Shown piece by piece: positions 25,268 through 55,549 of a DNA stretch of 55,549 nt (the first letter of the stretch is position 1; every line of letters begins with the position of its first letter). The notes below the pieces were generated by a model. It was given only the letters and a program-made list of their open reading frames with translations. It was not told the DNA's origin and made no database searches. Made by a program: the position numbers and the translations under genes. The stretch is from Chloroflexota bacterium (GTDB lineage Bacteria > Chloroflexota > Anaerolineae > 4572-78 > NAK82), in the NCBI GenBank assembly GCA_024276515.1, contig JAJRXB010000198.1, positions 1 through 55,549 of the forward strand. Direction: 5' to 3'.

Positions 25268-25942
25268 ATGGAACTTGTTATTTTCCACCGTCCTCGAGTG
25301 CTCTTACAGAGAAAGGGATACCAGGTTGCCAAACGGCTGCTCGATTTGACGCTCAGCCTTCTGATCTTGCCGTTTGCACTGATCATAATGTTTGTTTGTG
25401 CGGTGGCGATTGCCCTGGATTCGCCGGGTCCTGTTCTGTTTGTGCAAACCCGGGTTGGTAAGGGGGGACACCGTTTTAAGCTATATAAGTTTCGCACGAT
25501 GTATGAGAACTGCGATGCTGAGGGTCATCGTGCATTTATGAAGGCATTCATAAATGGTCAGGTAGATGACCTGGCAGCCGAGAAAACGGTGTACAAACCG
25601 TTCAGCGACCGGCAACTCACGCGTGTGGGGCGCATACTACGTAAGACCAGCCTCGACGAATTGCCACAGCTTTTCAACGTGATCAGGGGAGAGATGAGCC
25701 TCGTCGGCCCCCGGCCCAATGTTCCCTGGGAGGTCGAAGAATACCGGGGCTGGCACAAGGAGCGCCTGGAAGTGTTGCCGGGCATCACCGGTCTGGCTCA
25801 GGTGCGGGGGCGGAGCGGGCTTCGATTTGACCAGATCGTTCATTACGACATCGAATATATTGAGAGGCGAAGTTTTAAGATGGACCTTCAGATCCTGTGG
25901 TGGACTGTGGTTTCGGTCCTGGCAGGCAAAGGCGCGCACTAG
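25268..25942 (+). CDS. Priming phosphoglycosyltransferase (bacterial sugar transferase family, PglC/WbaP C-terminal type)
   Basis: KRLLDLTLSLLILPFALII, DSPGPVLFVQTRVGKGGHRFKLYKFRTM, DELPQLFNVIRGEMSLVGPRP. GGGAGGAG RBS. Confidence 0.92.
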   Translation: MELVIFHRPRVLLQRKGYQVAKRLLDLTLSLLILPFALIIMFVCAVAIALDSPGPVLFVQTRVGKGGHRFKLYKFRTMYENCDAEGHRAFMKAFINGQVDDLAAEKTVYKPFSDRQLTRVGRILRKTSLDELPQLFNVIRGEMSLVGPRPNVPWEVEEYRGWHKERLEVLPGITGLAQVRGRSGLRFDQIVHYDIEYIERRSFKMDLQILWWTVVSVLAGKGAH

Positions 25943-26086
25943 TGCTCTGTCAAGACTGAATTGATGGGTGATCTTGACCCCTACGGCGGCTGTTTTTGCC
26001 CTTCAAATCATCTTTGACAGAGTACTAGGCTCCACGGCGTTTCGCACGTCGCGTCGTAAATAGAGAACTTTTGGTTTTGTGGTTAT

Positions 26087-26484: not shown

Positions 26485-27261
26485 ATGAAAACGGTAATTC
26501 TCGCCGGCGGCTACGGGACACGCATCAGCGAGGAAAGCACTGTGAGGCCCAAACCGATGGTAGAGATCGGCGGCAAGCCGATCCTGTGGCACATTATGAA
26601 AATTTACTCCGCCCACGGCATCAACGACTTCATCATCTGCTGTGGCTACAAGGGTTATATGATTAAGGAATACTTCGCCAATTACTTTCTCTATATGTCC
26701 GACGTCACCTTCGATATGAAAAACAATAAGATGGAAGTTCATCAAAACAGCGCTGAGCCGTGGCGGGTAACGTTGGTCGACACCGGCGACGAGACGATGA
26801 CCGGCGGGCGACTCAGAAGGGTTAAGGATTACATTGGCAACGAAACGTTTTGCTTTACCTATGGAGATGGCGTCGCGAATGTGGATATTAAGCGGCTGAT
26901 TCACTTTCACCGGGAGCAAAAGACACTGGCCACCCTGACAGCGGTCCAGCCACCAGGGCGATTTGGGACTTTCAATTTGGCGCAGGAGCAAACCAGAATT
27001 TCTCACTTCAGAGAAAAGCCCCAGGGCGATGGCGCCTGGATTAACGGCGGGTTTTTCGTTCTGGAGCCGGCCGTGATGGATTACATCACCGGTGACTCAA
27101 CCGTTTGGGAGCAAGAGCCGCTAAAAAACCTGGCGCGGGATGGTATGCTATCGGCGTACAGGCATTACGGGTTCTGGCACCCGATGGATACGTTACGCGA
27201 CAAAAACGTTCTCGAAGAGTTGTGGGCTTCGGGTAACCCTCCCTGGAAAGTTTGGCAATGA
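26485..27261 (+). CDS. rfbF: Glucose-1-phosphate cytidylyltransferase
   Basis: [62 protein letters not shown] is highly characteristic of RfbF/DdhA. Confidence 0.95.
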
Positions 27262-28331
27262 ACAGGACATTCTGGAAGGGCAAAAAGGTCCTGATCACCG
27301 GCCACACCGGTTTTAAAGGCGGTTGGCTGGCCATATGGTTGCAAAAGCTGGGCGCCGACGTGCTGGGATATGCCTTATCCCCGCCGACCGAGCCAAGCCT
27401 GTTTGAGGTAGCCCGTGTAGCCGACGGGATGACTTCTATCACGGGCGACGTTCGTGACCTGGAACACCTCAAGGCCGTCGTCGCCGAGCACCGACCCGAA
27501 ATCGTCATCCACATGGCCGCTCAGGCATTGGTGCGCTATTCTTATCGCAACCCCGTAGAAACATATGCAACCAACGTGATGGGCACGGTGAATGTGCTGG
27601 AGGCAGTCCGGCAGACAGAAAGCGTGCGCGTCGTGGTCAACGTCACCAGCGACAAGTGCTACGAAAACAAGGAATGGGTTTGGGGATACCGAGAAAACGA
27701 GCCAATGGGTGGACATGACCCCTATTCCAGCAGCAAGGGATGCGCAGAACTGGTCACATCCGCTTATCGGAATTCTTACTTTCCCGTGGCGGATTATCCA
27801 CGCCACGGGGTAGCGATTGCCAGCGCCCGGGCCGGTAACGTGATCGGCGGTGGGGATTGGGCTCAGGACCGTCTCGTCCCCGACGTCGTGAATGCTTTTA
27901 TGGAAGGCCGGCCCGTGATCATCCGTAGCCCCCGTGCCATCCGTCCCTGGCAGCACGTGCTGGAGCCGCTCAGCGGCTATCTGTGCCTGGCAGAACAGTT
28001 GTGGGAGCGGGGGGCGGAGCTCGCCCAGGGCTGGAATTTTGGACCCGACGACGACGCCAGACCCGTCTTGTGGATTGTGAAGTACCTGGCCGATCTCTGG
28101 GGTGAGGGAGCCGGCTGGGAATTGGACTCGGCAGAGCACCCGCACGAGGCCCACTACCTGAAACTGGACTGCTCCAAGGCCAAAAGCTTGCTGGCGTGGT
28201 CGCCGAGGCTGCGCCTGACTACGGCCCTGGAATGGACTGTCGAATGGTATCAGGGCTACCGGCGGGACGAAGATATGCGCTGCCTGACCGAAGCCCAAAT
28301 TGCGCGCTACGAAGATATGGAGGCGGCATGA
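27258..28331 (+). CDS. rfbG: CDP-glucose 4,6-dehydratase
   Basis: [36 protein letters not shown] (YxxxK). ATG at 27258 overlaps the rfbF stop (ATGA). The ORF-track TTG lies at 27252. Confidence 0.95.
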
Positions 28332-28861
28332 TCTTCCGAGAGACAGAACTCAAAGGCGCGTTTATCATTGAATTGGAAAAACTGGAGGACGCGCGGGGCT
28401 TTTTTGCCCGGGCGTGGTGTCAGAAAGAATTTGAAGCGCATGGTCTGACGGCGAGGTTGGTTCAGTGCAACCTCTCTTTCAACAAAAAACGAGGGACGTT
28501 ACGAGGTATGCATTACCAGGCCGCCCCCTACGAAGAGGTTAAATTGGTCCGATGCACCAGGGGCGCGGTATACGACGTCATCATCGATTTGCGGCCAGAA
28601 TCGCCTACCTACAAGCAGTGGCTAGGCGTGGAATTGACGGCCGACAACTACAAAATGCTCTACGTGCCCGAAGGTTTTGCTCACGGGTATCAAACCCTCA
28701 CCGACGACGCCGAGGTGTTTTACCAGGTATCCCAGTTTTACACGCCGGCGTCTGAGCGGGGCGTGCGCTGGGATGATCCGGCGTTTGGCATCGAGTGGCC
28801 GGAAACCGACACGCGGATCATTTCGGACAAGGACGAGAGTTGGCCGGATTACGCGCAATGA
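28328..28861 (+). CDS. RmlC-like sugar-nucleotide 3,5-epimerase (cupin)
   Basis: DARGFF, LRGMHYQ, KLVRCTRGAVYDVIIDLR, YVPEGFAHGYQTL. ATG at 28328 overlaps the rfbG stop (ATGA). Confidence 0.9.
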   Translation: MIFRETELKGAFIIELEKLEDARGFFARAWCQKEFEAHGLTARLVQCNLSFNKKRGTLRGMHYQAAPYEEVKLVRCTRGAVYDVIIDLRPESPTYKQWLGVELTADNYKMLYVPEGFAHGYQTLTDDAEVFYQVSQFYTPASERGVRWDDPAFGIEWPETDTRIISDKDESWPDYAQ

Positions 28862-30114
28862 GGTCGGGGACGTACAAAAACAATCGCATTGCAGGTTTTC
28901 TGGCCGATACCTGGTGGTTTGGACTTTCCAAAAGGCTGTCGGAGGAAGATTTTGAGAGGCTGGCGGCGCTTCGCGCCGAACAGGGCTTTTCGGCGGTCCA
29001 GCTTGTCGTTGGCGTGCCGCCGGAGGTTGGCCCCGAAAATGAAAACGCCCAAAGCCAGGCAGGGTTTCCGTGGACGCTCGATGGCAACTTCAATCCAAAA
29101 TATCTGGAGCTTGCCCGAGACAAAATACAATATCTGAATGACCTCGGCTTGCTCGTCATCGTCTATGGTGCCTGGGGCCATCAAATCCAATGGCTTGGCA
29201 AGGAGAGAATGGCCCAATGGTGGGCAAAGATAATAGAAACTTTGGACTCGCTCGATGTGATATACTGTCTGTGCGGCGAAAGTAATTTGTGGGTGGGAGA
29301 AGAGTCGCAATTGCTGCCTGCCCGGTCCACGGACGACCTGGTGCGGAGTCGCGTACTATCCTGGTTGCCGGCGGGGATGCGCAGTCGTTTGGGTGAAGCG
29401 GTCAAATGTTTCAGGCGACCGCTCTACCGACGCCAACTCGAAAAACGTCGTGACGACTGGAGTTTTGTGCTGGAGACAATATCGCAACGCACCGACAAGC
29501 CTGTCATCGTCCATCCTGTCTCTTATGAAACGGGTTACGAGGCGGTCGCCAACCCGCAATTGTTGTCCGCCAATACGGTCCAAACGGGGCACGACGCAAG
29601 CGCCAGAAATCGCTTGTGGCGGCAACCGCTGGCGTTGTTGAAAGATGATCCTGCTCACAAGGGGTTCATCAATCTGGAGCCGTGGTACGAGGGCATATGC
29701 GATCAGTTTTGGGCCGAAGATCAAATGTTTGCCTACTGGGTGACCATGTTGGCAGGAGCGACAGGCTATTGTTATGGGGCTCACGGAATCTGGAACGTGG
29801 GAGACGGCGAGTTTCTGGCTCATTGGGGAAAACAAACGTTTGCTCAGGCGATGGCGCTCGACACACCCAGATTGCTCGGTCTTTCTCACAAACAGTATTT
29901 GCTGCGGTGGCATCACCAGGGTGAAACTTTTTACCAAACGGTGGGAGACGAGCTGATAACCATTGGGAGAAAGGCCGGGGGCAAGGTGATCCAATTCTTC
30001 CCAGAGGTCGGCAGGGCCAGCTACGTCCCTGGTGGGAAAATTTGGCTTCCCCTTGAGGGTGTTTTTGCAGAGAGATTGCCACCCCACGGACAAATAGTCA
30101 TCTTCCGTGATTGA
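28858..30114 (+). CDS. DUF4038 / GH140-like TIM-barrel protein (putative glycoside hydrolase fold)
   Basis: FLADTWWFGLSKRLSEEDFERLAALRAEQGFSAVQLVVG resembles the DUF4038 N-terminus. ATG at 28858 overlaps the epimerase stop (ATGA). No signal peptide. The family call rests on recall, not a search. Confidence 0.6.
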   Translation: MRSGTYKNNRIAGFLADTWWFGLSKRLSEEDFERLAALRAEQGFSAVQLVVGVPPEVGPENENAQSQAGFPWTLDGNFNPKYLELARDKIQYLNDLGLLVIVYGAWGHQIQWLGKERMAQWWAKIIETLDSLDVIYCLCGESNLWVGEESQLLPARSTDDLVRSRVLSWLPAGMRSRLGEAVKCFRRPLYRRQLEKRRDDWSFVLETISQRTDKPVIVHPVSYETGYEAVANPQLLSANTVQTGHDASARNRLWRQPLALLKDDPAHKGFINLEPWYEGICDQFWAEDQMFAYWVTMLAGATGYCYGAHGIWNVGDGEFLAHWGKQTFAQAMALDTPRLLGLSHKQYLLRWHHQGETFYQTVGDELITIGRKAGGKVIQFFPEVGRASYVPGGKIWLPLEGVFAERLPPHGQIVIFRD

Positions 30115-30132: not shown

Positions 30133-31440
30133 ATGATCATCGTTGACAAGGCGCTGGAAAAACGACACCAGGAAGGCAATCCCGTCCGGGTGGCGATGGT
30201 AGGGGCTGGTTATATGGGGCGTGGCATTGCCCTTCAGATTATAACGGCGACCGTGGGTATGGAACTGGTCGCCATCTCGAACCGCACCCTCTCAGAGGCC
30301 GGTCGTGCCTATCGGGAAGCCGGCGTAGACGCGGTCAAGACAGTCGAGACTGTCGCTCAGTTGGAGGAGGCCATCAACCAGGGGCAATGTGCCATCACCG
30401 ACGATGCGCTGCTGCTTTGCCGGGCAGAAGGCATCGACGCCGTGATTGAAGTGACAGGCACGATTGAATTTGGTGCCCGCGTGGCACTGGAGGCGATTGA
30501 ACACGGCAAACACGTCATCCTGATGAACGCGGAACTCGACGCTACGCTGGGCCCGATTCTAAAGGTATATGCCGACCACGCCGGGGTGATCATCACCAAC
30601 GCCGACGGCGACCAGCCTGGCGTGATTATGAATCTCTACCGCTTTGTCAAGGCCATCGGCTGCAGGCCGGTTTTGGCCGGTAATATGAAAGGTCTCCACG
30701 ACCCCTACCGCACGCCCGAGACCCAGCGGGGATATGCGGCCAAATACCACCAAAAGCCGCGGATGGTCACGTCCTTCGCCGACGGAAGCAAAATTTCGAT
30801 GGAAATGGCGGTCGTGGCCAATGCAACGGGTTTCAAGGTTGGCCAGCGGGGCATGTATGGGCCGCACTGTGCTCACGTCAACGACACCGTGACTCTCTTC
30901 CCTATGGACCAGTTGCTTGGTGGTGGCCTCGTAGACTACGTTGTTGGTGCCGAGCCCGCGCCTGGGGTGTTTGTTTTGGGCTACAATGAGCACCCAATTC
31001 AGCAGCGCTACATGAGGTACTACAAGATGGGGGATGGTCCCCTGTACGTTTTTTATACCCCCTACCACTTGTGCCACCTGGAAGTGCCTCTGACCGTTGC
31101 CCGGGCTGTGCTCTTTGACGATGCCACTGCCACGCCCCTTGCCGGCCCGGTGTGCGAGGTAGTCACCGTCGCCAAGCGTGACCTGAAGGCTGGCGAAATG
31201 CTCGACGGCATCGGCGGCTTTACGTGCTACGGCGTGCTCGAAAACTCCGAGATCCGGCAGGTTGAAAATCTGTTGCCAATGGGGTTGTCTGAGGGGTGTT
31301 ACCTCAAAAGAGACATCCCAAAGGACCAGGTCATTACCTGCGCTGACGTAACCCTGCCCGAGGGACGTCTGTGCGACAAGCTGTGGGCCGAACAGAACGC
31401 TTACTTTGCCCTGTCCGAAGCTGTTGCAGTGATGGCGTAG
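30133..31440 (+). CDS. NAD(P)-binding oxidoreductase with C-terminal SAF domain (COG4091-like, homoserine-dehydrogenase-related)
   Basis: Rossmann motif VAMVGAGYMGRGIA, and the C-terminal segment VAKRDLKAGEMLDGIGGF is typical of a SAF domain. Candidate 4-ketoreductase of the CDP-sugar branch (inference). Confidence 0.75.
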   Translation: MIIVDKALEKRHQEGNPVRVAMVGAGYMGRGIALQIITATVGMELVAISNRTLSEAGRAYREAGVDAVKTVETVAQLEEAINQGQCAITDDALLLCRAEGIDAVIEVTGTIEFGARVALEAIEHGKHVILMNAELDATLGPILKVYADHAGVIITNADGDQPGVIMNLYRFVKAIGCRPVLAGNMKGLHDPYRTPETQRGYAAKYHQKPRMVTSFADGSKISMEMAVVANATGFKVGQRGMYGPHCAHVNDTVTLFPMDQLLGGGLVDYVVGAEPAPGVFVLGYNEHPIQQRYMRYYKMGDGPLYVFYTPYHLCHLEVPLTVARAVLFDDATATPLAGPVCEVVTVAKRDLKAGEMLDGIGGFTCYGVLENSEIRQVENLLPMGLSEGCYLKRDIPKDQVITCADVTLPEGRLCDKLWAEQNAYFALSEAVAVMA

Positions 31441-31563: not shown

Positions 31564-32460
31564 ATGGCCGTAAAAGAATTCACCGAACCACAACCTGCCG
31601 TAGCCGCTTCTGCGCCTGTCGCACCGGACGAAGAGCCGGCGATTCATATTCGTATTGAAGCTTCCAAAGGCTGGGTTTCTCTCAAGCTCCGCGAGTTGTG
31701 GGAATATCGGGAACTGCTATACTTCCTCACCTGGCGTGACATCAAGGTGCGCTACAAGCAGACCGTGCTGGGCGCGGCCTGGGCCATCATCCAGCCCTTT
31801 TTCACGATGGTGGTCTTCAGTTTGTTCTTCGGCAAGTTGGCCAAAATCCCCTCGGACGGTATCCCCTATCCCATCTTCAGTTACGCCGCGCTGGTGCCCT
31901 GGACTTTCTTCGCCAGGGGACTTGGTCAGGCTTCAAACAGCCTGGTGAGCGGCTCTAAACTGATCAAGAAAGTCTACTTCCCGCGGCTGGCGATGCCGAT
32001 AGCCACCGTGTTGGGGGGGGTCGTAGATTTCGCTTTGGCGTTTGTCGTGCTGTTGGGGATGATGCTTGCCTACCGCATCATGCCCACCGTCAATGTGTTT
32101 TGGTTGCCGCTTTTTCTATTGCTGGCACTGATTACCTCCCTCGGCGTCTCCCTCTGGCTTTCGGCGATGAACGTGCAGTTCCGTGACGTGCGTTACACCG
32201 TCCCTTTCATCACCCAGTTCTGGATGTTTGCCACGCCGATTGCCTATCCCAGCAGCCTGATCAAGGACCCCTTGTTGCGGACAGTGTACGCTATCAATCC
32301 AATGGTGGGCGTGATAGAGGGCTTTCGGTGGGCCTTGCTGGGCACCGACACAGCGCCTGGCCGTATCATCATCGTTTCCTCGTTGGCAGCGTTGGTGATA
32401 CTCATCAGCGGGGCGTTCTACTTTCGCCGTATGGAAAGAACTTTCGCGGACGTCGTGTAG
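31564..32460 (+). CDS. wzm: ABC-2 type polysaccharide export permease
   Basis: LWEYRELLYFLTWRDIKVRYKQTVLGAAWAIIQPFFTMVVF, plus six predicted TM helices. Confidence 0.92.
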   Translation: MAVKEFTEPQPAVAASAPVAPDEEPAIHIRIEASKGWVSLKLRELWEYRELLYFLTWRDIKVRYKQTVLGAAWAIIQPFFTMVVFSLFFGKLAKIPSDGIPYPIFSYAALVPWTFFARGLGQASNSLVSGSKLIKKVYFPRLAMPIATVLGGVVDFALAFVVLLGMMLAYRIMPTVNVFWLPLFLLLALITSLGVSLWLSAMNVQFRDVRYTVPFITQFWMFATPIAYPSSLIKDPLLRTVYAINPMVGVIEGFRWALLGTDTAPGRIIIVSSLAALVILISGAFYFRRMERTFADVV

Positions 32461-35827: not shown

Positions 35828-36613
35828 ATGTTAAAGACTACGAAGACCACAAACCATCACCACCTTTCTGGAATAGTAGACAGGCTCTCCAAAGCCGCAG
35901 CGCGGAGGATGTTGGGGACTATCACTCACGTTTCAACTCAGGATGCCGTTGTTGGCCTCACTTTTGACGACGGTCCCCATCCCGAATTCACGCCACGCCT
36001 GCTGGAGATCCTGGACAGGCATCAGGTGCGTGCGACTTTCTTTATGGTTGGCAAGGTTGCCCAGCGCCATCTGGAGCTTGTCCGGCAAGTGGCCCAGGCC
36101 GGACACGCTATCGGCAACCATTCTTGGGATCACCCATCCTTCCCGTTGATCACGCGGCGGGAGCGGTATGCCCAGCTCCGTGCCTGCGCGCAGGCCATCG
36201 CCCCTTACGGACAGCGGTTGTTCCGCCCACCGTATGGTCATCAGAGCGTGGCGTCGCGCTTTGACGCTCTGGTGCTTGGTTATCAGGTTGTTACCTGGAA
36301 TGTAGTTGCCCAAGATTGGCTCGATCGAGACGCAAACTGGATAGTCAATCGGGTAAAGGAGCGGATCAGGCCCGGCAGCATCGTTCTTTTCCACGACGCG
36401 CTTTGTGATCTGGAGGCGGAGCAATACATCGATCGAGGACCGATGCTCGCAGCGGTTGACATGCTCCTGGAGCGACTCGGCGACCGTTTTCGCTTCGTCA
36501 CCATACCCGAGTTGCTTCGCCACGGTTGCCCGCAAAAGCGAAACTGGTATCGGAGAGGGAATGTTGAGTGGTTGGACGCTCTTATAGATCAGACACGACC
36601 GTCAAGATCATAG
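35828..36613 (+). CDS. Polysaccharide deacetylase (CE4 / NodB homology domain), no signal peptide
   Basis: LTFDDGPHPEFTPRLLEIL, ATFFMVG, GNHSWDHPSF, LFRPPYG. Confidence 0.92.
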   Translation: MLKTTKTTNHHHLSGIVDRLSKAAARRMLGTITHVSTQDAVVGLTFDDGPHPEFTPRLLEILDRHQVRATFFMVGKVAQRHLELVRQVAQAGHAIGNHSWDHPSFPLITRRERYAQLRACAQAIAPYGQRLFRPPYGHQSVASRFDALVLGYQVVTWNVVAQDWLDRDANWIVNRVKERIRPGSIVLFHDALCDLEAEQYIDRGPMLAAVDMLLERLGDRFRFVTIPELLRHGCPQKRNWYRRGNVEWLDALIDQTRPSRS

Positions 36614-48985: not shown

Positions 48986-49020
48986 TGCCGACGTCCCGTC
49001 GAGATAGGTTGAGGCAAGTT

Positions 49021-50523
49021 ATGCAGAGGGTGAAGCTCACCTCGATGTTCAAAGATATATCTCAGCCAACTCTGAAGCTGTTGTATTGTGCCCGTTATCC
49101 TCTTTTCGGATTCCTCGCCATCGTCCTGGGCGTCTTGGTTGGGCGTGGGCTGGCTTCACCCAAGTCTTACCTGGACGTGGTGACCTACCTGGTCTTCGGC
49201 GGCTGGGTCATCCTGAGCCTGATGGACCCGCCAACCGGCCTCCTGGCCGTTATTCTCGTCCACCCATTCATCGAAACCTCTATCAAACTCGATTTGGGCA
49301 AAGGAATCCCCGATTTCTCCATCACCCGCTTCGGCGTCGCTTTCTTGCTCACCCTCCTCCTGGCCCGAGCGGCCGTTCGGCTGCGCCCCCTGGTGGCACC
49401 AGGTCGGATTGAAGGAGCTATGTTGGCAGCGCTGGTCGGCATGATCGCCGCCGTGGACGCTTCGGTGGAGCCTACAGGGGCGCTGCAACGGATTCTCACC
49501 CTCTACCTGGTCCCTTATCTCTTCTTCTTCCTGGCGAAAAACCTGATCCAGAATCGCTCCCACCTTGACCGGTTGCTCATCGCCCTGGCGATCATAGGCG
49601 CTTATTCCGGCCTCTACGCTACCTATGAGCAGCTCACCGGCAACATTCTGTTCACCAACCGTGATCTGAGCAGACGGATTCTCTATTACTCCGAGAACAT
49701 TCGAGTGTTGCGGGGCCTGTACGGGGAACCGGCTATATTTGGCCGTGTCTTTGGAATGATCATCCCTGTGAACTTTTACCTGGTGTTGGAGGCCCCTACC
49801 CGTCGCCGGCGCCTGTTCTTCCTGGGAACTCTTAGCGCCTCCCTCATTGGCCTCTTTATGGCCTACAACCGCACGCCGTGGATCAGCACGTTGCTCGGCT
49901 TCGTCGTTTTGCAGTTTGCCTATCCCAAGTTCCGCCGACTCTTCCTGGCCCTCATCCTGGTGGCAGGGATCTTCGCCTTCGTCGGCTCCGACACCGTGGA
50001 AGACAGTACGGTGGTCAACGAGCGCATCAGTAGCAACTCCACCCTTGAGGGACGAACGTTGCGCTGGGAGACCGGTGTCAACATGTGGAAAGCTAAACCC
50101 ATTTGGGGCTGGGGATTCGACCACTATCAGTACGAATCGGGCAAGTATCGCCCCGATGGCCTGACCAAGAACATCAAAGCCGTGGAGAGCGCTTTCATCG
50201 CGCTCCTGGTGGCGACCGGCGTTGTGGGGTTCGTCCCCTGGGTTGCTGTGATGGCCTTGTTGCTGTATCTCAGCATTCGCCTGTACTTTCGGGCTCGGGC
50301 TCCCGATTGGCCGGGCTTCGTGGAGGACAAGCTGTTCGCCGTTTTCTGGGCTGTCTTCATCACCTACGTGGTGGGGGCCTGGACTGTTGTGATCAACCAT
50401 CCTATCATCAGCATCATTTTTTTCACCGTTGCTGGTGCGCTGATTGGCACGCACCAACAGTTGCTCAGCGCCCGCTCTCAGGGAGATCGTCAAACCCGCC
50501 ATCTCGGGGAGGCCAACTTGTGA
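49021..50523 (+). CDS. O-antigen ligase/polymerase-like membrane protein (Wzy_C domain)
   Basis: About 10-12 TM helices with MAYNRTPWISTLLGF and WGWGFDHY motifs. ATG at 49021 lies 7 nt after GAGG (ORF-track GTG at 48985). Confidence 0.85.
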   Translation: MQRVKLTSMFKDISQPTLKLLYCARYPLFGFLAIVLGVLVGRGLASPKSYLDVVTYLVFGGWVILSLMDPPTGLLAVILVHPFIETSIKLDLGKGIPDFSITRFGVAFLLTLLLARAAVRLRPLVAPGRIEGAMLAALVGMIAAVDASVEPTGALQRILTLYLVPYLFFFLAKNLIQNRSHLDRLLIALAIIGAYSGLYATYEQLTGNILFTNRDLSRRILYYSENIRVLRGLYGEPAIFGRVFGMIIPVNFYLVLEAPTRRRRLFFLGTLSASLIGLFMAYNRTPWISTLLGFVVLQFAYPKFRRLFLALILVAGIFAFVGSDTVEDSTVVNERISSNSTLEGRTLRWETGVNMWKAKPIWGWGFDHYQYESGKYRPDGLTKNIKAVESAFIALLVATGVVGFVPWVAVMALLLYLSIRLYFRARAPDWPGFVEDKLFAVFWAVFITYVVGAWTVVINHPIISIIFFTVAGALIGTHQQLLSARSQGDRQTRHLGEANL

Positions 50524-52046
50524 GAATCCGGTGCTTGATCGTAGGCTGGGATGGCGCGACCTGGACCGTCATTCGACCGCTGTTGGAGCAGGGGAGGCTC
50601 CCCAACCTGGCCCGGCTGATGCGCGAGGGGGTGCACGCCACCCTGCGCTCCTTCGAGCCGTCCCTGACCCCCATCGTGTGGACGACGATTGCCACGGGCA
50701 AGCGCCCGGAGAAGCACGGCGTGACCCGCTTCTTCGACACGGCCACCGGCCTGCGCACCCGACGCATCTGGGACATCCTGGCCGCTCCCGATCGCTCTAT
50801 AGGGCTCTTCGGCTGGCCGGTCACCTGGCCCCCACCTCAATTGCCGGGCTTCGTGATCCCGTCCCTCTTCGAGCGGGCCAACGATACCCACCCTCCCCAC
50901 CTGCGCTTCATCCGCGAGATGGAATCGGGCCTGCAGGCCCCGTGGGGCCGGCGGATCTCCCTCATTGCCAAAGCGATGCGGTACGGCCTCCGACCCGGGA
51001 CCCTGGTCCACATCGCTGGCTACTTCCTCCAGTCCCGCCTGCGCCGCCTGCGGGCCAACGACCACTTCATCCGCCAGCGGGTTCTCAAGCTGGAGATCCA
51101 GCTCGACCTCTACCTGAACCTGGTGCGTCGCTACCAGCCCTGGTTCACCACCTTTTACCTGAACCAGACCGATGCCTTCTCGCACCGTTTCTGGCGCTAC
51201 CTGGAGCCGGAGCCCTTCCCTCCCCTGCCGCCGGAGGAGTTGACCCGTTACCGCGACGCCATTCCCTATGCCTACGAGCTTGCCGACCGGGCCCTGGGCC
51301 GCATCCTGCGCCTCACCGACGAGGAGACGCTCATCTGCCTGCTCTCCGACCACGGTTTCGAGGCCAGTCACAAGGCCGGACAGGGGATGCAGGACTTCCG
51401 GGGCCGGCTCAAAGGCGAGGCCGTCCTGCGCACCTTTGGGCTGGACGGGGAGGTCTCTTACGTCCACCACCGGCGCTGGATTGTGCTGAGCTTCCGGCGA
51501 GATGCTTCACCGGAGCGCAAAGAGGCGGTCATCCAGAAGCTGCGCAGCGTCTACGTCCCGGAGATTGACATGCCGATGTTCGACGTGAAGGAGGACAACA
51601 TCGGCTCGCTGGCCGTGAAACTCTACGGCGCGCGCGTCTTCGACAACCGTGACCTGGACGAGCTGACGGTTGTCTGGCCCGAAGGTCGGTGCCGTTTCAC
51701 CGATCTGGTGCAGCCGGAGTACGATCTGAAGGTCTCCGGCATCCACCATCCCGACGGCATCCTGGTGCTCAAGGGGCCGGGCGTCGTCCGCCGCGCCGAG
51801 CCATTGTCCGAAGCCACCGTGCTGGACGTGGTCCCCACGTTGCTGGCTTTGCTGGACTTCCCGGTCGCCGAGGATATGGATGGACGGGTGCTGACCGAAG
51901 CGATAGACCCGGCCTACCTTCAGGCCTATCCCCTCCGCACCATCGAGACCTACGACGAAGGGCTCGCCCTGGAGGAGACCGCTGAAGAGGAAGAGGTGCC
52001 CCAGGAGGTGATGGACCGCCTCCGGGCCCTCGGCTACGTGGACTGA
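50520..52046 (+). CDS. Alkaline phosphatase family protein (type I phosphodiesterase/nucleotide pyrophosphatase fold)
   Basis: IVGWDGATW, SLTPIVWTTIATGKRPEKHGV, LLSDHGF, SGIHHPDGILV. GTG at 50520 overlaps the upstream TGA (GTGA). The ORF-track extension from 50103 overlaps the previous gene and was rejected. Confidence 0.85.
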   Translation: MRIRCLIVGWDGATWTVIRPLLEQGRLPNLARLMREGVHATLRSFEPSLTPIVWTTIATGKRPEKHGVTRFFDTATGLRTRRIWDILAAPDRSIGLFGWPVTWPPPQLPGFVIPSLFERANDTHPPHLRFIREMESGLQAPWGRRISLIAKAMRYGLRPGTLVHIAGYFLQSRLRRLRANDHFIRQRVLKLEIQLDLYLNLVRRYQPWFTTFYLNQTDAFSHRFWRYLEPEPFPPLPPEELTRYRDAIPYAYELADRALGRILRLTDEETLICLLSDHGFEASHKAGQGMQDFRGRLKGEAVLRTFGLDGEVSYVHHRRWIVLSFRRDASPERKEAVIQKLRSVYVPEIDMPMFDVKEDNIGSLAVKLYGARVFDNRDLDELTVVWPEGRCRFTDLVQPEYDLKVSGIHHPDGILVLKGPGVVRRAEPLSEATVLDVVPTLLALLDFPVAEDMDGRVLTEAIDPAYLQAYPLRTIETYDEGLALEETAEEEEVPQEVMDRLRALGYVD

Positions 52047-52049: not shown

Positions 52050-54410
52050 ATGCAACACACTGGTTCGAGTGCGCAGAATTGGATACGACGCGCCCAGATT
52101 GTGGCCGGCCGGGGGCCGGGCTACCTCCTCCGCTTTGGTCGCTGGCAACTCTGGCGGGCCTTTCAGGCCCGAGCCCGCTGGCCGCGCCCCACGGTGGACC
52201 TGTTCCGCCACCTCGACCTGGACCGTCCCGGCCTGGTCGCCGTGGCGGAGGCCCTGGAACGCGGCGACAGGCCAGCCGCCGAAACAGCGCTGGTGGAGCA
52301 TCTGGCCGCCCGCCCCCGCCCCCGCTTCTTCTTCGGGGAGGATGACCGGGAAGCTATGCGCCGGGTCGTGTCCACTTCGGTGCAACAGGCCACCATCGCC
52401 GCCGCCGAGGAGGTCTGCCAGCGCCGGTTCCGCTTCCGCGGCCAGCCCCCCGTCCAGTTCGACGGGCGCATTGACTGGCGCGCGCGCCCCGGAGGCAACG
52501 TGGATTGGACGTGGGACCTGAACCGGCACGGCTACTTCGTCACCCTGGGCCGTGCCTACTGGTATACCGGCGAGGAACGGTTCTGCGAGACCTTCTGTCA
52601 CGTCCTGCTGGACTGGATCGCCCAAAACGCGACCGGGGTGACCCAACCGGCCACCCACAGCGTCTTCGAGGTGGCCGCCCGCCTGCACAACTGGCTCTGG
52701 GCCTTCGCCCACTTCCGGGCGGCGCCGACCTTCCAGCGCCGGGCCTGTATCCCCTTTCTGCGCTCTCTCTTCGACCAGGCCCGCTACCTGGAGGCTAACC
52801 TGGAACACCACGCCACCAACAACCACCTCCTGCTGGAATCGTGGGTGCTGGCCTGGGTGGGTCTCACCTTCCCGGAGTTCCGCCGGGCGAGCCACTGGCG
52901 CGAGCGGGGCCTGCGCGTCTTCTACCGCCAGGTCCGGGAGCAGGTCGCCCCCGACGGCGTGCACCGGGAGCAGGCCACCCTCTACCACTTCATCGTCACC
53001 CAGGCGTTGCTCTCCCTGGACCTCTGGCTGGCTGGCAACGGCCTCTCCCTGCCCGACGACGTGGCCGACCATCTGCGACGGATGCACACCTTCGCCCGCG
53101 CCGTCCGCAAGCCCGACGGCACCTTCCCCTTGCTGGGCGACTCGGCCCGCAGCGACAGCTTTCTCGTCTTCGACCCGGTGGCCGCCGGCGAGGCCTGGCT
53201 GGACCGGGGGAGCCAGATCCCCCGGACGGCGGACCTGGACGAAGGGGGCATCTGGCTGGTCGGGCCGGCGCTGGCCTGCGACTACCGACAGCGACCCTTC
53301 GACGTCGGCGTGCTCGCTTCCCAGGCTTTCGTCTCCAGCGGTCACTTCGTGATGCGCCACGGCGAGGGCGAGCACCAAAGCTACGCGCACGTGGATTGCG
53401 GCTTCTTCGGTCACGAGCCGGTTCCCAACCACGGCCACGCCGACGCCCTGAGCCTGGTCCTGCACGCCTACGGTCACACCCTGCTGCCCGACGCCGGCGC
53501 CTACGGCTACTACCTGGGGCTGGACTGGCGGGCCTACTTTCGGGGCACCCGCGCTCACAACACCGTCCTGGTGGACGGGGAAGACCAGAGCGAGTTGCTG
53601 GGCATCCGCCACGTGGGCCGCGTCGCCCGGACGGCGCTCCGGCGCTGGTTCAGCAGCCCGGCCTTCGACCTGGTGGACGGCAGCCACGACGGCTACACCC
53701 GCCTGCCCGATCCCGTGGTCCACCGCCGGGTGGTCCTCTTCGTGAAAGGGGAAGCCCCCTACTGGCTGGTGCTGGATCACCTGACGGGGAGCGGAACCCA
53801 CCAGGTCACTGCTCTCTTCCACCTGGCGCCGGCGATGCGGTGGCACCAGGACGAGGGGGGACGGGTCCACGCCTGGCTGGAGGATGGCGCGGCGCTCCAC
53901 CTCCTCCCCGGGCAGGGGGGACGGTTGAGCACTCAGGTCGTGTGTGGTGCTACCCAACCCATCCAGGGGTGGGTGTCACCGGAGTCAGGGGAGCGGCTGC
54001 TGGCCCCTACCGTCTGCTACACCTGGGACGGCCCCCTGCCCCTGCTCCTGGCGACGGTCCTCTTCCCCGAGCCTCGCCGGGGGGCTTTCGACGTCCGCCT
54101 CTCCCCCCTGACACCGGCCGAAGGAGAGGTGGGGTTGGTCGTGACCGGCCCTTCGGGGGAAGACGTGGCGCTCTGGCGGGCAGCGCCGGGGCCTATGGAG
54201 GCCGATTCCTGCCGGGCCTGGGGGGAGATGGCCGTGTGGCGTCGGTCGCCCCAGGGCCGGGTTCAGGCTGCCCTGCTCGTCCAGGGGACGTCTCTGGAGA
54301 CGACCGACCGGCCCCTCATCACTGCCCCATCGCCCCAGACCGTTCTCTGGAGCGCCGGGCGCATCCATCGGATTGAGAGCTATGATTCGAATCGCGTATC
54401 TGGCCCATAA
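52050..54410 (+). CDS. Heparinase II/III-like protein (no signal peptide)
   Basis: NNHLLLESWVLAWVGLTFPEF, GVHREQATLYH, NHGHADALSLVLHAYGHTLLPDAGAYGY, RGTRAHNTVLVDGEDQ. Confidence 0.88.
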   Translation: MQHTGSSAQNWIRRAQIVAGRGPGYLLRFGRWQLWRAFQARARWPRPTVDLFRHLDLDRPGLVAVAEALERGDRPAAETALVEHLAARPRPRFFFGEDDREAMRRVVSTSVQQATIAAAEEVCQRRFRFRGQPPVQFDGRIDWRARPGGNVDWTWDLNRHGYFVTLGRAYWYTGEERFCETFCHVLLDWIAQNATGVTQPATHSVFEVAARLHNWLWAFAHFRAAPTFQRRACIPFLRSLFDQARYLEANLEHHATNNHLLLESWVLAWVGLTFPEFRRASHWRERGLRVFYRQVREQVAPDGVHREQATLYHFIVTQALLSLDLWLAGNGLSLPDDVADHLRRMHTFARAVRKPDGTFPLLGDSARSDSFLVFDPVAAGEAWLDRGSQIPRTADLDEGGIWLVGPALACDYRQRPFDVGVLASQAFVSSGHFVMRHGEGEHQSYAHVDCGFFGHEPVPNHGHADALSLVLHAYGHTLLPDAGAYGYYLGLDWRAYFRGTRAHNTVLVDGEDQSELLGIRHVGRVARTALRRWFSSPAFDLVDGSHDGYTRLPDPVVHRRVVLFVKGEAPYWLVLDHLTGSGTHQVTALFHLAPAMRWHQDEGGRVHAWLEDGAALHLLPGQGGRLSTQVVCGATQPIQGWVSPESGERLLAPTVCYTWDGPLPLLLATVLFPEPRRGAFDVRLSPLTPAEGEVGLVVTGPSGEDVALWRAAPGPMEADSCRAWGEMAVWRRSPQGRVQAALLVQGTSLETTDRPLITAPSPQTVLWSAGRIHRIESYDSNRVSGP

Positions 54411-55549
54411 ATTTCCGGGGCTGACCCTGACCTTCGTTTACCGGGAGATCTACGCCCTGCGCCAGGCCGGCCTGGAGGTTCTGCCCTTTTCCATCTGGCG
54501 GCCTGATCCGGCGGAGGTCTCGCCGGAGGCTGAGCCCCTGCGTCGGGAGACCCGCTACCTCTTCCCGCTCTCGGCGGGGAGGCTGGTGACCAGTCACCTG
54601 CGCTACTGGCGTCGGTCGCCCAGGGCCTATTGGCGCACCCTGTTCGATCTCCTGACCAGCTCCGGGGAGTCCCTATCCAACCGGCGGCGCACGCTGATCC
54701 ACTTCCTGGGTGGGGTGGTGCTGACCCGTTATCTGGAGGAGGTGGGAATCGAGCACGTGCACGCCCACTTCGCGCTGAACGGCGCGACGATGGCCCTGAT
54801 CGCCTCCCGGCTGCTGGGCATCCCCTTCAGCTTCACCGCTCACGCCAACGATCTCTACGCCAATCCGGTGCTGCTGCCCATGAAGATTCGGGAGGCCGAC
54901 TTCGTCGTCGCCATCTCCGAGTACAACCGTCGCCACATGGTGGACGTGGCCGGCGACCCCGGAGTCGCCTCCAAGATCCACGTCGTCCACTGCGGCCTGG
55001 ACCCGGCCCAGTTCCCCTACGTCCCCCCGGAGAAGCACCCGGAACGCCCCATCATTCTCGGCGTCGGACGGCTGGTGGAGAAGAAGGGATTCGCCTGCCT
55101 CGTCGCTGCCTGCCGTCACCTGGCCCAGGCAGGATACGATTTCGAGACGCGGATCATCGGGGATGGTCCCTTACGCGCCTCCCTGGCGCGGGCGATCCAG
55201 GCCGCCGGGCTGGATGGGCGGGTGCGGTTGCTGGGAGCCCTGCCCCAGGAGGAGGTTCGGGAACACCTGCGCCAGGCCACTATTTTTGCCCTCCCCTGCG
55301 TCGTCGCCCGGGATGGGGATCGGGACGGTATCCCGGTGGCCCTGATGGAGGCGATGGCGACCGGGATGCCCGTCGTCTCCACCGCCGTGTCGGGTATCCC
55401 GGAGCTGGTCGTCCACGAGGAGAGCGGCCTCCTGGTGTCGCCGGGGGACGCCCAGGCGCTGGCCCGTGCCCTCGGTCGGCTGCTGGACGACCCTCTCCTG
55501 AGACGACGATTGGGGGAGCAAGGGAGGGAAGTCGTCCTGCGAGACTTCA
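54382..55549 (+). CDS. Glycosyltransferase family 4, WcaL-like (partial, runs off window end)
   Basis: Not in the ORF track because no stop is reached. Hand translation of frame 1 from ATG 54382: MIRIAYLAHKFPGLTLTFVYREIYALRQAGLEV..GRLVEKKGF..DGIPVALMEAMATGMPVVSTAVSGIPELV..SGLLVSPGD. Paralog of 40352-41599. Confidence 0.88.
   Translation, partial: MIRIAYLAHKFPGLTLTFVYREIYALRQAGLEVLPFSIWRPDPAEVSPEAEPLRRETRYLFPLSAGRLVTSHLRYWRRSPRAYWRTLFDLLTSSGESLSNRRRTLIHFLGGVVLTRYLEEVGIEHVHAHFALNGATMALIASRLLGIPFSFTAHANDLYANPVLLPMKIREADFVVAISEYNRRHMVDVAGDPGVASKIHVVHCGLDPAQFPYVPPEKHPERPIILGVGRLVEKKGFACLVAACRHLAQAGYDFETRIIGDGPLRASLARAIQAAGLDGRVRLLGALPQEEVREHLRQATIFALPCVVARDGDRDGIPVALMEAMATGMPVVSTAVSGIPELVVHEESGLLVSPGDAQALARALGRLLDDPLLRRRLGEQGREVVLRDF

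Follow-up and report, generated by a model that had tools for sequence, protein, structure and literature searches.

The catalytic Asn, Tyr and His residues of heparinase III have been described (PMC12088678), and human dermatan-sulfate epimerase 1 (DS-epi1) is an epimerase with the lyase fold, a fold in which lyase and epimerase differ by small changes in the active site (PMC8006597). In bacteria, the only reported glucuronyl C5-epimerase is a GlcE-like enzyme from Bermanella (PMC13308652). The original prediction had referred to heparinase II/III-fold bacterial proteins reported as glucuronyl C5-epimerases; no such report was found. Nor did we find in the literature a biochemically characterised member of either of the two families treated below, a NodH-like sulfotransferase and a heparinase III (PL12)-like protein.

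Both are encoded in the window, which is the whole stretch of 55,549 nucleotides that was analysed. Positions 25268-55549 are occupied by a single compact plus-strand train of 25 genes (~30 kb). On balance, we lean towards reading this stretch of a Chloroflexota (Anaerolineae-like) bacterium as a large, variable locus for biosynthesis of a cell-surface glycan, namely a sulfated heteropolysaccharide, with a biosynthetic enzyme acting on uronate C5. The last gene is truncated by the window end and thus the locus, which continues beyond it, is incomplete in the window. The locus is continuous as originally predicted, but the "many" ATGA/GTGA overlaps were a slight overstatement, since there are only two ATGA overlaps (40352, 46539) and one GTGA overlap (50520), the others being of 1 to 29 nt. 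For the GT14, CE4, sulfotransferase and heparinase II/III genes, Pfam and NCBIfam matches agree with the predicted coordinates and families. Beyond these four, the locus holds a sulfatase-family and a second alkaline-phosphatase-superfamily gene, Wzm/Wzt, Wzz and Wzy_C genes, the truncated GT4 gene at its end and a CDP-6-deoxyhexose pathway, the three enzymes of which exceed NCBIfam equivalog cut-offs; the original prediction had named none of these. The features are:

24349..25230, +, membrane GGDEF-like protein (weak GGDEF/GGDEF_2 matches; 2 TM segments)
25268..25942, +, initiating polyprenyl-phosphate glycosyl-phosphotransferase (Bac_transf, Pfam E 3e-62; EPS_sugtrans/WcaJ/WbaP-like)
26485..27261, +, glucose-1-phosphate cytidylyltransferase (TIGR02623, 469 bits vs cut-off 300)
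27252..28331, +, CDP-glucose 4,6-dehydratase (TIGR02622, 519 bits vs cut-off 278)
28340..28861, +, RmlC-type 3,5-epimerase (TIGR01221, 195 bits vs cut-off 156; Pfam dTDP_sugar_isom); ORF open from 28196, start uncertain
28795..30114, +, cytoplasmic apiosidase-like (GH140-like) protein without signal peptide (PF13204, E 1.7e-31)
30133..31440, +, NAD-binding DRL_cat + SAF oxidoreductase, a candidate sugar-nucleotide reductase (PF21135, E 1.8e-55; kept in L001 and L004)
31564..32460, +, Wzm, ABC-2 permease for glycan export (PF01061; 5 or more TM segments)
32472..33800, +, Wzt, ABC ATPase with a C-terminal extension of ~170 residues (PF00005; Wzt_C weak, E 0.007, recorded for the orthologues in L001, L002 and L124)
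33846/33849-34886, +, GT14 (Branch) glycosyltransferase (PF02485, 79.7 bits vs cut-off 23.4)
34874..35779, +, GT2 glycosyltransferase
35828..36613, +, cytoplasmic CE4 (NodB-type) de-N-acetylase (Polysacc_deac_1 E 5e-32; NodB is the top NCBIfam match)
36760..37635, +, GT2 glycosyltransferase
37687..38559, +, NodH-like PAPS-type sulfotransferase (Sulfotransfer_3 35.5 bits, cut-off 27; Sulfotransfer_1 24.1 bits, cut-off 22)
38580..39281, +, hexapeptide-repeat O-acetyltransferase (WbbJ/WcaF-like)
39363..40355, +, GT2 glycosyltransferase
40352..41599, +, GT4 glycosyltransferase (WcaL-like)
41604..44003, +, membrane-anchored extracytoplasmic S9 alpha/beta-hydrolase with CLIPPER_2/DUF7507 domain (Pfam; N-terminal TM segment)
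43996..45225, +, GT4 glycosyltransferase
45238..46542, +, GT4 glycosyltransferase
46539..47570, +, Wzz/GNVR polysaccharide co-polymerase-like protein (2 TM segments)
47582..48985, +, cytoplasmic sulfatase-fold enzyme without formylglycine motif (Pfam Sulfatase + SGSH_C)
48985..50523, +, Wzy_C-domain membrane protein, either polymerase or WaaL-type ligase (PF04932; 11 TM segments)
50520..52046, +, cytoplasmic type I phosphodiesterase/NPP-like alkaline-phosphatase-superfamily enzyme (PF01663, E 1.6e-29; motifs GWDGATW and PSLTP...TG..P..HG; its GTGA overlap is with the Wzy_C gene)
52050..54410, +, cytoplasmic heparinase III (PL12)-like protein (Hepar_II_III_N E 2.5e-52; Hepar_II_III_C E 2.5e-41)
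54382..55549 (cut by window end), +, GT4 glycosyltransferase (EpsE/WcaL-like; Pfam, NCBIfam), overlapping the stop of the heparinase-like gene

The first of these lies directly upstream of the gene train; it may have a regulatory role, and whether it belongs to the locus is uncertain. In the related loci L010/L011, the first gene encodes a GNVR+GGDEF protein.

The sulfation proposed in the original prediction was examined by family alignment of the PAPS-binding residues. Both the 5′-PSB (R20-S-G22-S) and the 3′-PB (H156-x-x-R159-x-N-x6-S168) are present, and RSGS and HxxRxNx6S are invariant among 16 relatives, as is E41, whose position matches the catalytic-base region of TPST. As both motifs are kept, sulfation is not contradicted by a loss of PAPS-binding residues. 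The nearest PDB sequence is NodH (9vki), and for the structural model (pLDDT 84) all matches at E <= 1e-3 are PAPS sulfotransferases (TPST, Stf0, NDST1). The CE4 protein has all five NodB motifs (TFDDGP, HSWDH, RPPYG, DW, LFHD) and is, judged by these, catalytically intact. CE4, sulfotransferase and heparinase-like protein lack signal peptides and TM segments, which bears out the signal-less CE4 and the cytoplasmic heparinase-like protein of the original prediction.

In eight of eight independent contexts with enough flank (the window, L001, L002/3, L004, L005/6, L092, L093 and L097/103), the sulfotransferase subfamily is found at most 5 genes from Wzm/Wzt, and in four of them directly upstream of Wzm. 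A CE4 or PIG-L de-N-acetylase accompanies it in 6/8 independent loci, in line with the predicted de-N-acetylation. The closest relatives, L123 and L124 (81-83% identical), have the same gene order as the window, and in each there is one more sulfotransferase, a Sulfotransfer_1 family member. Among the relatives, only the two closest have GT14; the gene is variable and does not imply glycosaminoglycan priming. The term "glycosaminoglycan-like" itself is only weakly supported. The CDP-6-deoxyhexose enzymes, nine glycosyltransferases from three families and the O-acetyltransferase point to a complex heteropolysaccharide and not to a repeating hexosamine-uronate disaccharide. As stated in the original prediction, the window encodes neither a UDP-glucose dehydrogenase nor an ATP-sulfurylase or APS-kinase; it also lacks any other nucleotide-sugar dehydrogenase and PAP-recycling genes. 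The supply of uronic acid and of PAPS is therefore assumed, and uronic acid presumably occurs in the host.

We propose that the region from 25268 to ~41600 would assemble, on the cytoplasmic side of the membrane, a heteropolysaccharide with a polyprenyl as its carrier. The phosphoglycosyltransferase would start the chain, and the GT14, GT2 and GT4 enzymes would attach a CDP-glucose-derived 6-deoxyhexose and other sugars. The NodB-type CE4 may partly de-N-acetylate acetamido sugars in the cytoplasm, the glycan would be O-acetylated and, by the NodH-like enzyme, sulfated from PAPS, and Wzm/Wzt would export the finished chain. The acceptors are those that we infer for the enzymes, and the sulfate would end up on the glycan. 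An ABC exporter, Wzz and Wzy_C are all present and a Wzx flippase is absent, and so this pathway is a tentative one.

A second module would extend from ~41600 to beyond the window end, with the S9 hydrolase, GT4s, Wzz, the Wzy_C protein, the PL12-like protein and the final GT4. The hydrolase gene is syntenic in L001-L004, L012 and L124; it has ~118 relatives, and those few with a source name are almost all from Chloroflexota or Anaerolineae. The module would also hold two cytoplasmic Thr-nucleophile enzymes of the alkaline-phosphatase superfamily. One of these, encoded at 47582-48985, was rejected as a canonical sulfatase: when aligned to solved sulfatases, its formylglycine motif is absent and the site reads T-V-P-S-H (T-x-P-x-H). 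Among the best 150 representatives, the nucleophile is T in 140 and S in 10; C does not occur there, nor does R at the Arg position. Sulfatase-like genes beside homologues of the PL12-like gene carry S-L-P-x-H.

For the PL12-like protein, heparinase III is both the top sequence match (E 1e-27 to 1e-29) and the best fold match of the model (pLDDT 92; TM up to 0.77). N258/H259, Y312/H313 and H461/H463 are invariant or near-invariant among 43 homologues and align with HepIII Asn240, Tyr294 and the region of His424, so that the catalytic centre is intact. A signal-peptide-like N-terminus occurs in none of the 43 homologues, while a basic motif, AKGPxYxxxYxRWR, is common to all of them. The characterised close structural relatives are all lyases, and the protein may alternatively be a lyase. 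DS-epi1, which shares the lyase fold and matches the model (6hzn) at TM ~0.6, is a precedent for epimerisation by this fold. The sequence itself has no feature that separates epimerase from lyase. By analogy with DS-epi1 we tentatively treat the protein as a possible C5-epimerase, a reading that is somewhat doubtful.

Over 80 genome loci of the PL12-like family, neighbours are GT4 (60), AsnB-like amidotransferases (41), nucleotide-sugar dehydrogenases (34; eight of eight tested pass TIGR03026) and sulfotransferases (10). The pairing with GT4 is kept in L007, L009, L010, L012 and L016-L020. Chloroflexota loci have 4-6 sulfotransferases around a core of sulfatase-like, PL12-like and GT4 genes, together with Wzy-like and Phosphodiest genes in slightly different order. 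These neighbours, the cytoplasmic family and the catalytic residues indirectly favour the uronate-directed biosynthetic role that had been predicted.

The four genes had been taken as a single co-occurring set. In this respect the original prediction goes too far, as sulfotransferase and PL12-like gene sit in two separable modules with different partners elsewhere. They are 13.5 kb apart, in other loci the NodH-like subfamily never occurs within 10 kb of a PL12-like gene, and neither CE4 nor GT14 was detected in the 80 PL12-like loci. The two proteins may thus serve different glycans, and a step in GC at 50.5 kb, from 0.50-0.62 to 0.66-0.70, suggests different histories of the two sides. However, an independent 326-kb contig carries the first module (sulfotransferase 59% identical) and, ~24 kb on, the second (PL12-like protein 44% identical). 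We infer a common product for the two modules.

On this product, the PL12-like enzyme would act on a uronic-acid residue in the nascent lipid-linked glycan. It would remove the C5 proton, as do lyases and DS-epimerase, and re-protonation from the other face, most likely, would amount to C5-epimerisation rather than cleavage. In loci rich in sulfotransferases, sulfation may lock the new epimer in place, and in AsnB-type loci amidation may do so. The second module would belong to a widespread type of cassette, with a heparinase-III-like enzyme that has no signal peptide and acts in the cell interior beside a GT4, and would be its Chloroflexota version. It seems that this large uncharacterised family probably modifies uronic acids in the synthesis of glycans and not in their degradation.

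The glycan locus consists of 25 consecutive plus-strand genes (25268-55549) and runs off the end of the window. Spacers are short, and neighbouring genes overlap by ATGA (two cases), by GTGA (one case) or, in several cases, by longer stretches. Two modules are distinguished here: module A, from 25268 to about 41600, and module B, from there to beyond the window end. The original prediction of a sulfated, glycosaminoglycan (GAG)-like polymer was built on four proteins, and each of these assignments was confirmed by Pfam or NCBIfam at its position:

33846-34886, plus strand: GT14 glycosyltransferase (Pfam Branch, 79.7 bits against a gathering score of 23.4, in two stretches)
35828-36613, plus strand: CE4 de-N-acetylase (Pfam, 110.9 bits; also NCBIfam)
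37687-38559, plus strand: sulfotransferase (Pfam Sulfotransfer_3 and Sulfotransfer_1, modestly above cut-off)
52050-54410, plus strand: heparinase-like (PL12-like) protein with Hepar_II_III_N and Hepar_II_III_C domains (Pfam and NCBIfam)

The locus further encodes an initiating phosphoglycosyltransferase (Pfam/NCBIfam), the exporter components Wzm and Wzt, a hexapeptide O-acetyltransferase and a CDP-sugar set of glucose-1-phosphate cytidylyltransferase, CDP-glucose 4,6-dehydratase and RmlC-type epimerase, each scoring above its NCBIfam equivalog cut-off. Together with the GT14 protein, three GT2 and five GT4 enzymes bring the glycosyltransferases to nine from three families. The other members are a Wzz/GNVR protein, a Wzy_C protein, a sulfatase-family protein and a type I phosphodiesterase-like protein. 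The joint occurrence of Wzm, Wzt and an initiating transferase in one locus defines an ABC-transporter-dependent glycan pathway. Named homologues of the locus proteins point to Chloroflexota/Anaerolineae. NCBIfam gave no match for the GT14, sulfotransferase, phosphodiesterase-like and apiosidase-like proteins. Elsewhere in the window a protease, a dehydrogenase, RecJ, an asparaginase, a histidine kinase, a patatin, a SIR2 protein, a response regulator, two FemAB proteins and nuoH-N are encoded. The two FemAB-family genes stand in tandem next to the response regulator (12950-15105) and suggest that this organism forms peptide cross-bridges in its cell wall.

Some features of the locus are recorded in their own right. 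The apiosidase-like (GH140-type) protein (28795-30114) has no signal peptide and is encoded in the sugar-nucleotide part, as is an oxidoreductase with DRL_cat and SAF domains (30133-31440) which is kept in the related loci L001 and L004 and may supply the 4-reductase that the CDP-6-deoxyhexose pathway lacks. The sole long gap of the locus, 542 non-coding nucleotides (25943-26484), separates the phosphoglycosyltransferase from the CDP-sugar genes; an Rfam scan of the window, this gap included, returned no match. Directly 5' of the initiating transferase lies a gene for a membrane GGDEF-like protein (24349-25230), and a protein combining GNVR and GGDEF opens related loci (L010, 1-593), which, at sequence level, is a hint that c-di-GMP may take part in controlling these glycan loci. 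The junction between the modules is occupied by a membrane-anchored S9 alpha/beta-hydrolase that carries a CLIPPER_2/DUF7507 domain at its C-terminus (41604-44003). It has about 118 relatives, and the few that bear a source name are nearly all from Chloroflexota or Anaerolineae; its place at the junction is fixed in L001-L004, L012, L123 and L124. Per-gene GC content is 0.50-0.62 between 24.3 and 50.5 kb, 0.66-0.70 in the final three genes and 0.65-0.68 where the window starts. The part with low GC resembles a variable glycan region that may have been acquired.

The sulfotransferase has about 50 relatives, nearly all metagenomic. Its 5'-phosphosulfate-binding loop is present (T18-Q-R20-S-G22-S-T24), and across 16 aligned relatives R20 and G22 are invariant while S21 and S23 are conserved to at least 90%. 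The same holds for the 3'-phosphate motif HxxRxNx6S, with H156, R159 and S168 invariant and N161 conserved to at least 90%. E41, also invariant in the 16 relatives, is a candidate for the catalytic base. The closest relative by sequence with a solved structure is NodH (9vki), at a marginal E-value of 0.006. In the AlphaFold model (pLDDT 84), all Foldseek matches at E <= 1e-3 are PAPS sulfotransferases, NDST1 included, with modest TM-scores of 0.4-0.5. The predicted sulfation would have fallen with the loss of the PAPS-binding residues; given the invariant motifs, the NodH match and fold matches exclusively to PAPS sulfotransferases, it stands.

The original prediction had also noted the absence of ugd and of PAPS-synthesis genes, and this is borne out: neither a nucleotide-sugar dehydrogenase (UDP-sugar 6-dehydrogenase included) nor a sulfate-activation gene (ATP sulfurylase, APS kinase) is encoded anywhere in the window. 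The missing PAPS genes would fit a protein that acts on a non-glycan substrate, or one that is inactive in an organism devoid of PAPS, as would the modest Pfam scores and the lack of an NCBIfam match. That no sulfated glycan is made is nevertheless highly improbable, as the PAPS motifs are invariant, the gene is consistently embedded in glycan loci, and relatives gain further sulfotransferases: the two closest relatives of the window (L123 and L124, 81-83% identical) have the same gene order from GT14 to the S9 hydrolase and each carry an extra, second sulfotransferase of the Sulfotransfer_1 family.

Eight independent contexts of the sulfotransferase subfamily had enough flanking sequence to be compared (the window, L001, L002/3, L004, L005/6 from Ca. 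Brocadia, L092, L093 and L097/103). In all eight, Wzm/Wzt is found within a few genes, and in four the sulfotransferase lies directly 5' of Wzm. Six of the eight also have a de-N-acetylase, either CE4 or, in the anammox loci, PIG-L. In the CE4 protein of the window all five NodB motifs are intact, including the Asp-His-His metal triad (TFDDGP, HSWDH, RPPYG, DW, LFHD), in agreement with the predicted de-N-acetylation. Because of this conserved neighbourhood of Wzm/Wzt and de-N-acetylase, we consider PAPS-dependent sulfation of an ABC-exported glycan, combined with de-N-acetylation, to be the best-supported part of our interpretation. The rhizobial Nod-factor pathway offers a parallel: NodH and the rhizobial LPS sulfotransferases share the PAPS motifs and the cytoplasmic sulfation of an oligosaccharide, and NodB, the CE4 prototype, belongs to the same pathway as NodH, just as the window pairs a CE4 enzyme with a NodH-like sulfotransferase. 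However, NodH acts on a lipo-chitooligosaccharide while the sulfotransferase of the window is found in the context of an ABC-exported polysaccharide.

In E. coli O8 and O9a, chains are ended by methyl or phosphomethyl caps, which are read via the C-terminal domain of Wzt. A single sulfate at the non-reducing end might serve likewise as a chain-terminating cap. The constant vicinity of the sulfotransferase to Wzm/Wzt and the Wzt_C carbohydrate-binding domain of Wzt orthologues elsewhere would fit such a cap, as would a fusion of Sulfotransfer_1 and FkbM methyltransferase (545 aa) which directly follows Wzm/Wzt in L097 (6288-7925, identical in L103) and is reminiscent of WbdD, the bifunctional O-antigen chain terminator. 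Yet the Wzt protein of the window scores too low for Wzt_C (16.8 bits, threshold 30.4), no sulfate cap is known to us from other systems, and adjacency to the exporter is equally expected for any cytoplasmic decoration step. We consider a sulfate cap unlikely.

For a sulfate that decorates the glycan, the locus can be compared with other surface-polysaccharide systems. By analogy, it would operate in the manner of ABC-transporter-dependent loci for O-antigens or S-layer glycans, with sulfation as an addition. It shares the phosphoglycosyltransferase, deoxyhexose genes and Wzm/Wzt with C-terminal extension with E. coli O9a and Geobacillus slg, and exceeds them by sulfation, de-N-acetylation, Wzz, the alkaline-phosphatase-superfamily enzymes and the PL12-like protein. 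Its Wzy_C-type protein could be a ligase or an O-oligosaccharyltransferase. The closest described analogue among sulfated extracellular polysaccharides is the cyanobacterial xss cluster for synechan in Synechocystis PCC 6803, which has sulfotransferases, about eight glycosyltransferases and Wzy and PCP components, as does the window locus (PMC8205485). It belongs to another phylum, however, is Wzx/Wzy-dependent, and lacks the CE4, lyase-fold and alkaline-phosphatase-superfamily proteins, all three of which are present here; synechan contains essentially no uronic acid.

It is a separate question whether the polymer is GAG-like in the strict sense, with a hexosamine-uronate backbone, N-deacetylation by CE4, NDST-like N-/O-sulfation, C5-epimerisation by the heparinase-fold protein and priming or branching by GT14. 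CE4 and sulfotransferase are indeed conserved partners, the proteins structurally similar to the sulfotransferase include NDST1, and the lyase-fold protein has a structural match to dermatan-sulfate (DS) epimerase 1. In addition, sludge extracellular polymeric substances are reported to carry mainly N-linked sulfate on GAG-like polymers (PMC10483923, PMC7356697), and Ca. Brocadia has a homologue of the sulfotransferase. Against this, the CDP-6-deoxyhexose genes exceed equivalog cut-offs, and nine glycosyltransferases of three families plus an O-acetyltransferase argue for a more complex glycan; the nine match only general GT2, GT4 and GT14 models, with no GAG-synthase annotation among them. 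The window is devoid of ugd, and CE4 and sulfotransferase are paired in one module while the heparinase-like protein belongs to the other. GT14, the candidate GAG-priming enzyme of this model, is missing from most syntenic relatives and kept only in the closest ones; we reject this role and regard it as an accessory glycosyltransferase. A true GAG-like polymer is thus quite improbable. Of the polymer originally predicted, sulfation and de-N-acetylation are supported and a uronate-modifying enzyme is plausible, but the GAG-like character is not established, and the genes present speak against it.

The heparinase-like protein has both Hepar_II_III domains, and its model (pLDDT 92, pTM 0.93) shows a toroid plus beta-sandwich fold. 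It aligns with heparinase III at an E-value of about 1e-29, with N258/H259, Y312/H313 and H461/H463 matched, positions that are fixed or almost fixed across 43 homologues. N258, Y312 and the H461/H463 region are the counterparts of Asn240/Tyr294/His424, the residue set given for 4MMH (PMC12088678). The likeness to heparinase III/HepC (PL12; 4MMH, 4FNV, 5JMD) thus extends to both domains, the fold and the Asn/Tyr/His set (PMC12088678). In contrast to these enzymes, the window protein has no signal peptide, carries an extra conserved basic pair of helices at the N-terminus, has a longer C-terminal beta domain (786 aa in total against about 640-660) and is encoded in a biosynthetic operon, overlapping a GT4 gene, not in a catabolic locus. 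A signal-peptide-like N-terminus occurs in none of the 43 family members, and the HepC equivalog of NCBIfam scores 144 bits against a cut-off of 700. The protein is therefore like heparinase III in fold and catalytic residues, and unlike it in export and equivalog score. Its first 45 or so residues (52050-52190) form two helices with a basic/aromatic AKGPxYxxxYxRWR element, common to all 43 homologues and not found in secreted heparinase III, which is possibly a membrane-interface or partner-binding element.

All solved structures matching the model at E <= 1e-3 are annotated as uronate lyases or as the uronate C5-epimerase. PL12 comes first (E 1e-30, TM up to 0.77), followed by PL39/PL17/PL15 alginate lyases, other GAG lyases and DS-epimerase 1 (human, 6hzn; E 1e-13, TMq 0.58, TMt 0.61). 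In the structural comparison proposed along with the original prediction, an epimerase is thus matched at a TM of about 0.6, and the nearest solved structures are all lyases. DS-epimerase 1 shares the toroid plus beta-sandwich fold, but the likeness is at fold level only, with 13% identity over the Foldseek alignment. Judged by conservation, the invariant His and Tyr residues of the family (Y312, Y549, H461/463) may correspond to its His/double-Tyr set. Epimerase and lyase share catalytic residues, and sequence conservation does not separate them. A literature search for cytoplasmic heparinase II/III-like proteins in biosynthesis found nothing relevant. The bacterial heparinase-fold C5-epimerases mentioned in the original prediction could not be substantiated from the literature consulted: the single bacterial enzyme reported there is of the GlcE-like type, and Agl32 of Halobacterium, rejected as a precedent, has an unrelated AGE fold (PMC13308652).

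A scan with one genome per species revealed at least 594 relatives of the heparinase-like protein from many phyla, including Chloroflexota, Acidobacteriota, Planctomycetota (with anammox bacteria) and Burkholderiales, none of them more than 47% identical. We searched six-frame ORFs around the best 80 of these loci with the window proteins and extra queries, within a radius of 10 kb.

Neighbours within 10 kb of homologues of the heparinase-like protein (best 80 of at least 594 loci)
GT4: 60 of 80 loci
AsnB-like amidotransferase: 41 of 80 loci
Nucleotide-sugar dehydrogenase: 34 of 80 loci
Sulfotransferase: 10 of 80 loci
CE4: 0 of 80 loci
GT14: 0 of 80 loci

All eight dehydrogenase ORFs tested pass TIGR03026. 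Two layouts occur in Chloroflexota, GT4c-Wzz-Wzy_C-GT4-AsnB-Hepar-GT4 and Phosphodiest-ST-Wzy-like-sulfatase-like-Hepar-GT4-ST-ST-ST, where Hepar denotes the heparinase-like protein and ST a sulfotransferase. The window is a hybrid which has the backbone of the first layout, with GT4 and AsnB replaced by both alkaline-phosphatase-superfamily enzymes of the second. In L010, L013, L015 and L021 sulfotransferases directly follow the Hepar-GT4 pair, that is, at the point where the window stops, and in L012 a dehydrogenase is found 8 kb downstream. As relatives carry these genes beyond the equivalent of the window end, the lack of ugd and additional sulfotransferases in the window counts as weak negative evidence. 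Judging by the related loci, the 10-15 kb past 55549 may hold more sulfotransferases, an AsnB-like gene or a nucleotide-sugar dehydrogenase.

The sulfatase-family protein (47582-48985) is cytoplasmic and has the Sulfatase + SGSH_C fold of family S1 formylglycine sulfatases; in the PDB it comes closest to GlcNAc-6-sulfatase and to carrageenan sulfatases. However, the formylglycine motif C/S-x-P-x-R is replaced by T-V-P-S-H, and among the best 150 representatives the nucleophile position is Thr in 140, Ser in 10 and never Cys, while the Arg position is never Arg. Sulfatase-like neighbours in related loci have S-L-P-x-H, and many representatives are 650-740 aa long with an N-terminal extension. 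From these residues, the protein appears to belong to a large Thr-nucleophile subfamily distinct from canonical sulfatases. As the motif is missing family-wide, we rejected this gene as support for a sulfated polymer and do not count it as evidence of sulfate turnover. In L124 the equivalent gene is split into two ORFs of 268 and 185 aa (18127-19490), a possible frameshift or pseudogene. A second cytoplasmic member of the alkaline-phosphatase superfamily (50520-52046) is NPP/Phosphodiest-like, has a Thr nucleophile motif and could handle PAP/PAPS or a phospho-substituent. In the 80 surveyed loci, genes of this superfamily occur almost only where sulfotransferases are present (counts 3/1/9/67, Fisher p ~0.01).

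The two modules adjoin in three places: in the window, in L124 and on a divergent 326-kb contig (L004 + L007) with a sulfotransferase 59% and a heparinase-like protein 44% identical to those of the window. This speaks for one system. Elsewhere, module A is found without B and module B without A; this, the GC jump at 50.5 kb and the combination of an ABC exporter with Wzz/Wzy_C but no flippase speak for two systems. Though Wzy_C and Wzz are both present, Pfam detected no Polysacc_synt/MATE flippase in the window; one is encoded in L010, and a Wzx-type flippase for the locus could lie past the window end. A single system is possible because a Wzy_C protein can serve as WaaL-type ligase in ABC-dependent systems, and we consider it likely that the modules are linked in one system.

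If, instead, two unrelated pathways adjoin, module A would make a sulfated, ABC-exported glycan and the PL12-like protein of module B would be a genuine lyase, which trims, releases or quality-controls a uronate polymer or caps the chain with an unsaturated uronate, comparable to AlgL, PslG and BcsZ of other EPS operons. Degradative enzymes are frequent in EPS operons, the nearest solved structures are all lyases, GC content shifts at 50.5 kb, and sulfotransferase and heparinase-like protein have different partner sets in the neighbour surveys. The Tyr/His/Asn catalytic set is, moreover, a lyase set (PMC12088678). On the other side, the known 'housekeeping' EPS lyases and hydrolases work outside the cytoplasm, whereas signal peptides are absent throughout this family. 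The tight coupling to GT4 (the start of the final GT4 gene, itself cut off by the window end, overlaps the stop of the heparinase-like gene by 29 nt), and elsewhere to AsnB-like genes, agrees with the modification of an intermediate during synthesis, and the modules recur together. Two pathways with a genuine lyase are rather unlikely.

CE4, sulfotransferase and PL12-like protein have intact catalytic motifs, are all cytoplasmic and show conserved synteny. In the mechanism we propose, the glycan would be built on a lipid carrier and be de-N-acetylated, acetylated and sulfated ahead of export by Wzm/Wzt, and the PL12-like enzyme would abstract the C5 hydrogen from a uronate on the nascent intermediate. 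Epimerisation is favoured over cleavage since the enzyme is intracellular, its gene is translationally coupled to a glycosyltransferase, the flanking enzymes across genomes modify the same residue class (by carboxylate amidation or sulfation), and DS-epimerase 1 epimerises with the same fold and residues; we hold epimerisation to be nearly an even chance. Small changes can turn a lyase into an epimerase, as noted by the authors on DS-epimerase 1 (PMC8006597). Neighbouring sulfotransferases (Chloroflexota type) or AsnB-like amidotransferases (common type) would trap the L-uronate, which is disfavoured thermodynamically, following the logic of DS-epimerase plus D4ST1 in animals. DS-epimerase 1, like the window protein as proposed here, is biosynthetic, acting on a nascent uronate chain where sulfotransferases fix the product (PMC13308652, PMC8006597). 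It is, however, a Golgi-lumen enzyme on long polymers, while the window protein is cytoplasmic and its epimerase role putative.

In the most far-reaching interpretation, the signal-less PL12-like family might represent the missing bacterial uronate C5-epimerases, acting on lipid-linked intermediates at the inner face of the membrane with the L-uronate locked by sulfotransferase or AsnB; it might be a prokaryotic counterpart and possible ancestor of DS-epimerase, and Anaerolineae-type loci might make the sulfated GAG-like polymers found in granular sludge and in microbial mats. As a whole, this is rather unlikely.

Bacterial sulfated polysaccharides are still described as essentially cyanobacterial (PMC8205485, PMC13390465), and granular and anammox sludge contains sulfated, largely N-sulfated, GAG-like polymers without known producers or pathways (PMC7356697, PMC10483923). 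The locus and its relatives from Anaerolineae and Ca. Brocadia, with a NodH-like sulfotransferase that is linked to ABC export and to a de-N-acetylase, provide candidate genes for the sludge polymers. In MAGs of Chloroflexota, the labels "sulfatase" and "alginate lyase/heparinase" are as a rule taken as degradative capacity; in this locus they cover neither canonical sulfatases nor obviously degradative enzymes. Cytoplasmic heparinase-III-like proteins make up a large and uncharacterised family whose setting is consistently biosynthetic. Should it epimerise uronates, the source of L-uronic acids in bacterial surface glycans would be explained, and the family would bear on the unresolved origin of the animal dermatan-sulfate epimerase (PMC8006597).
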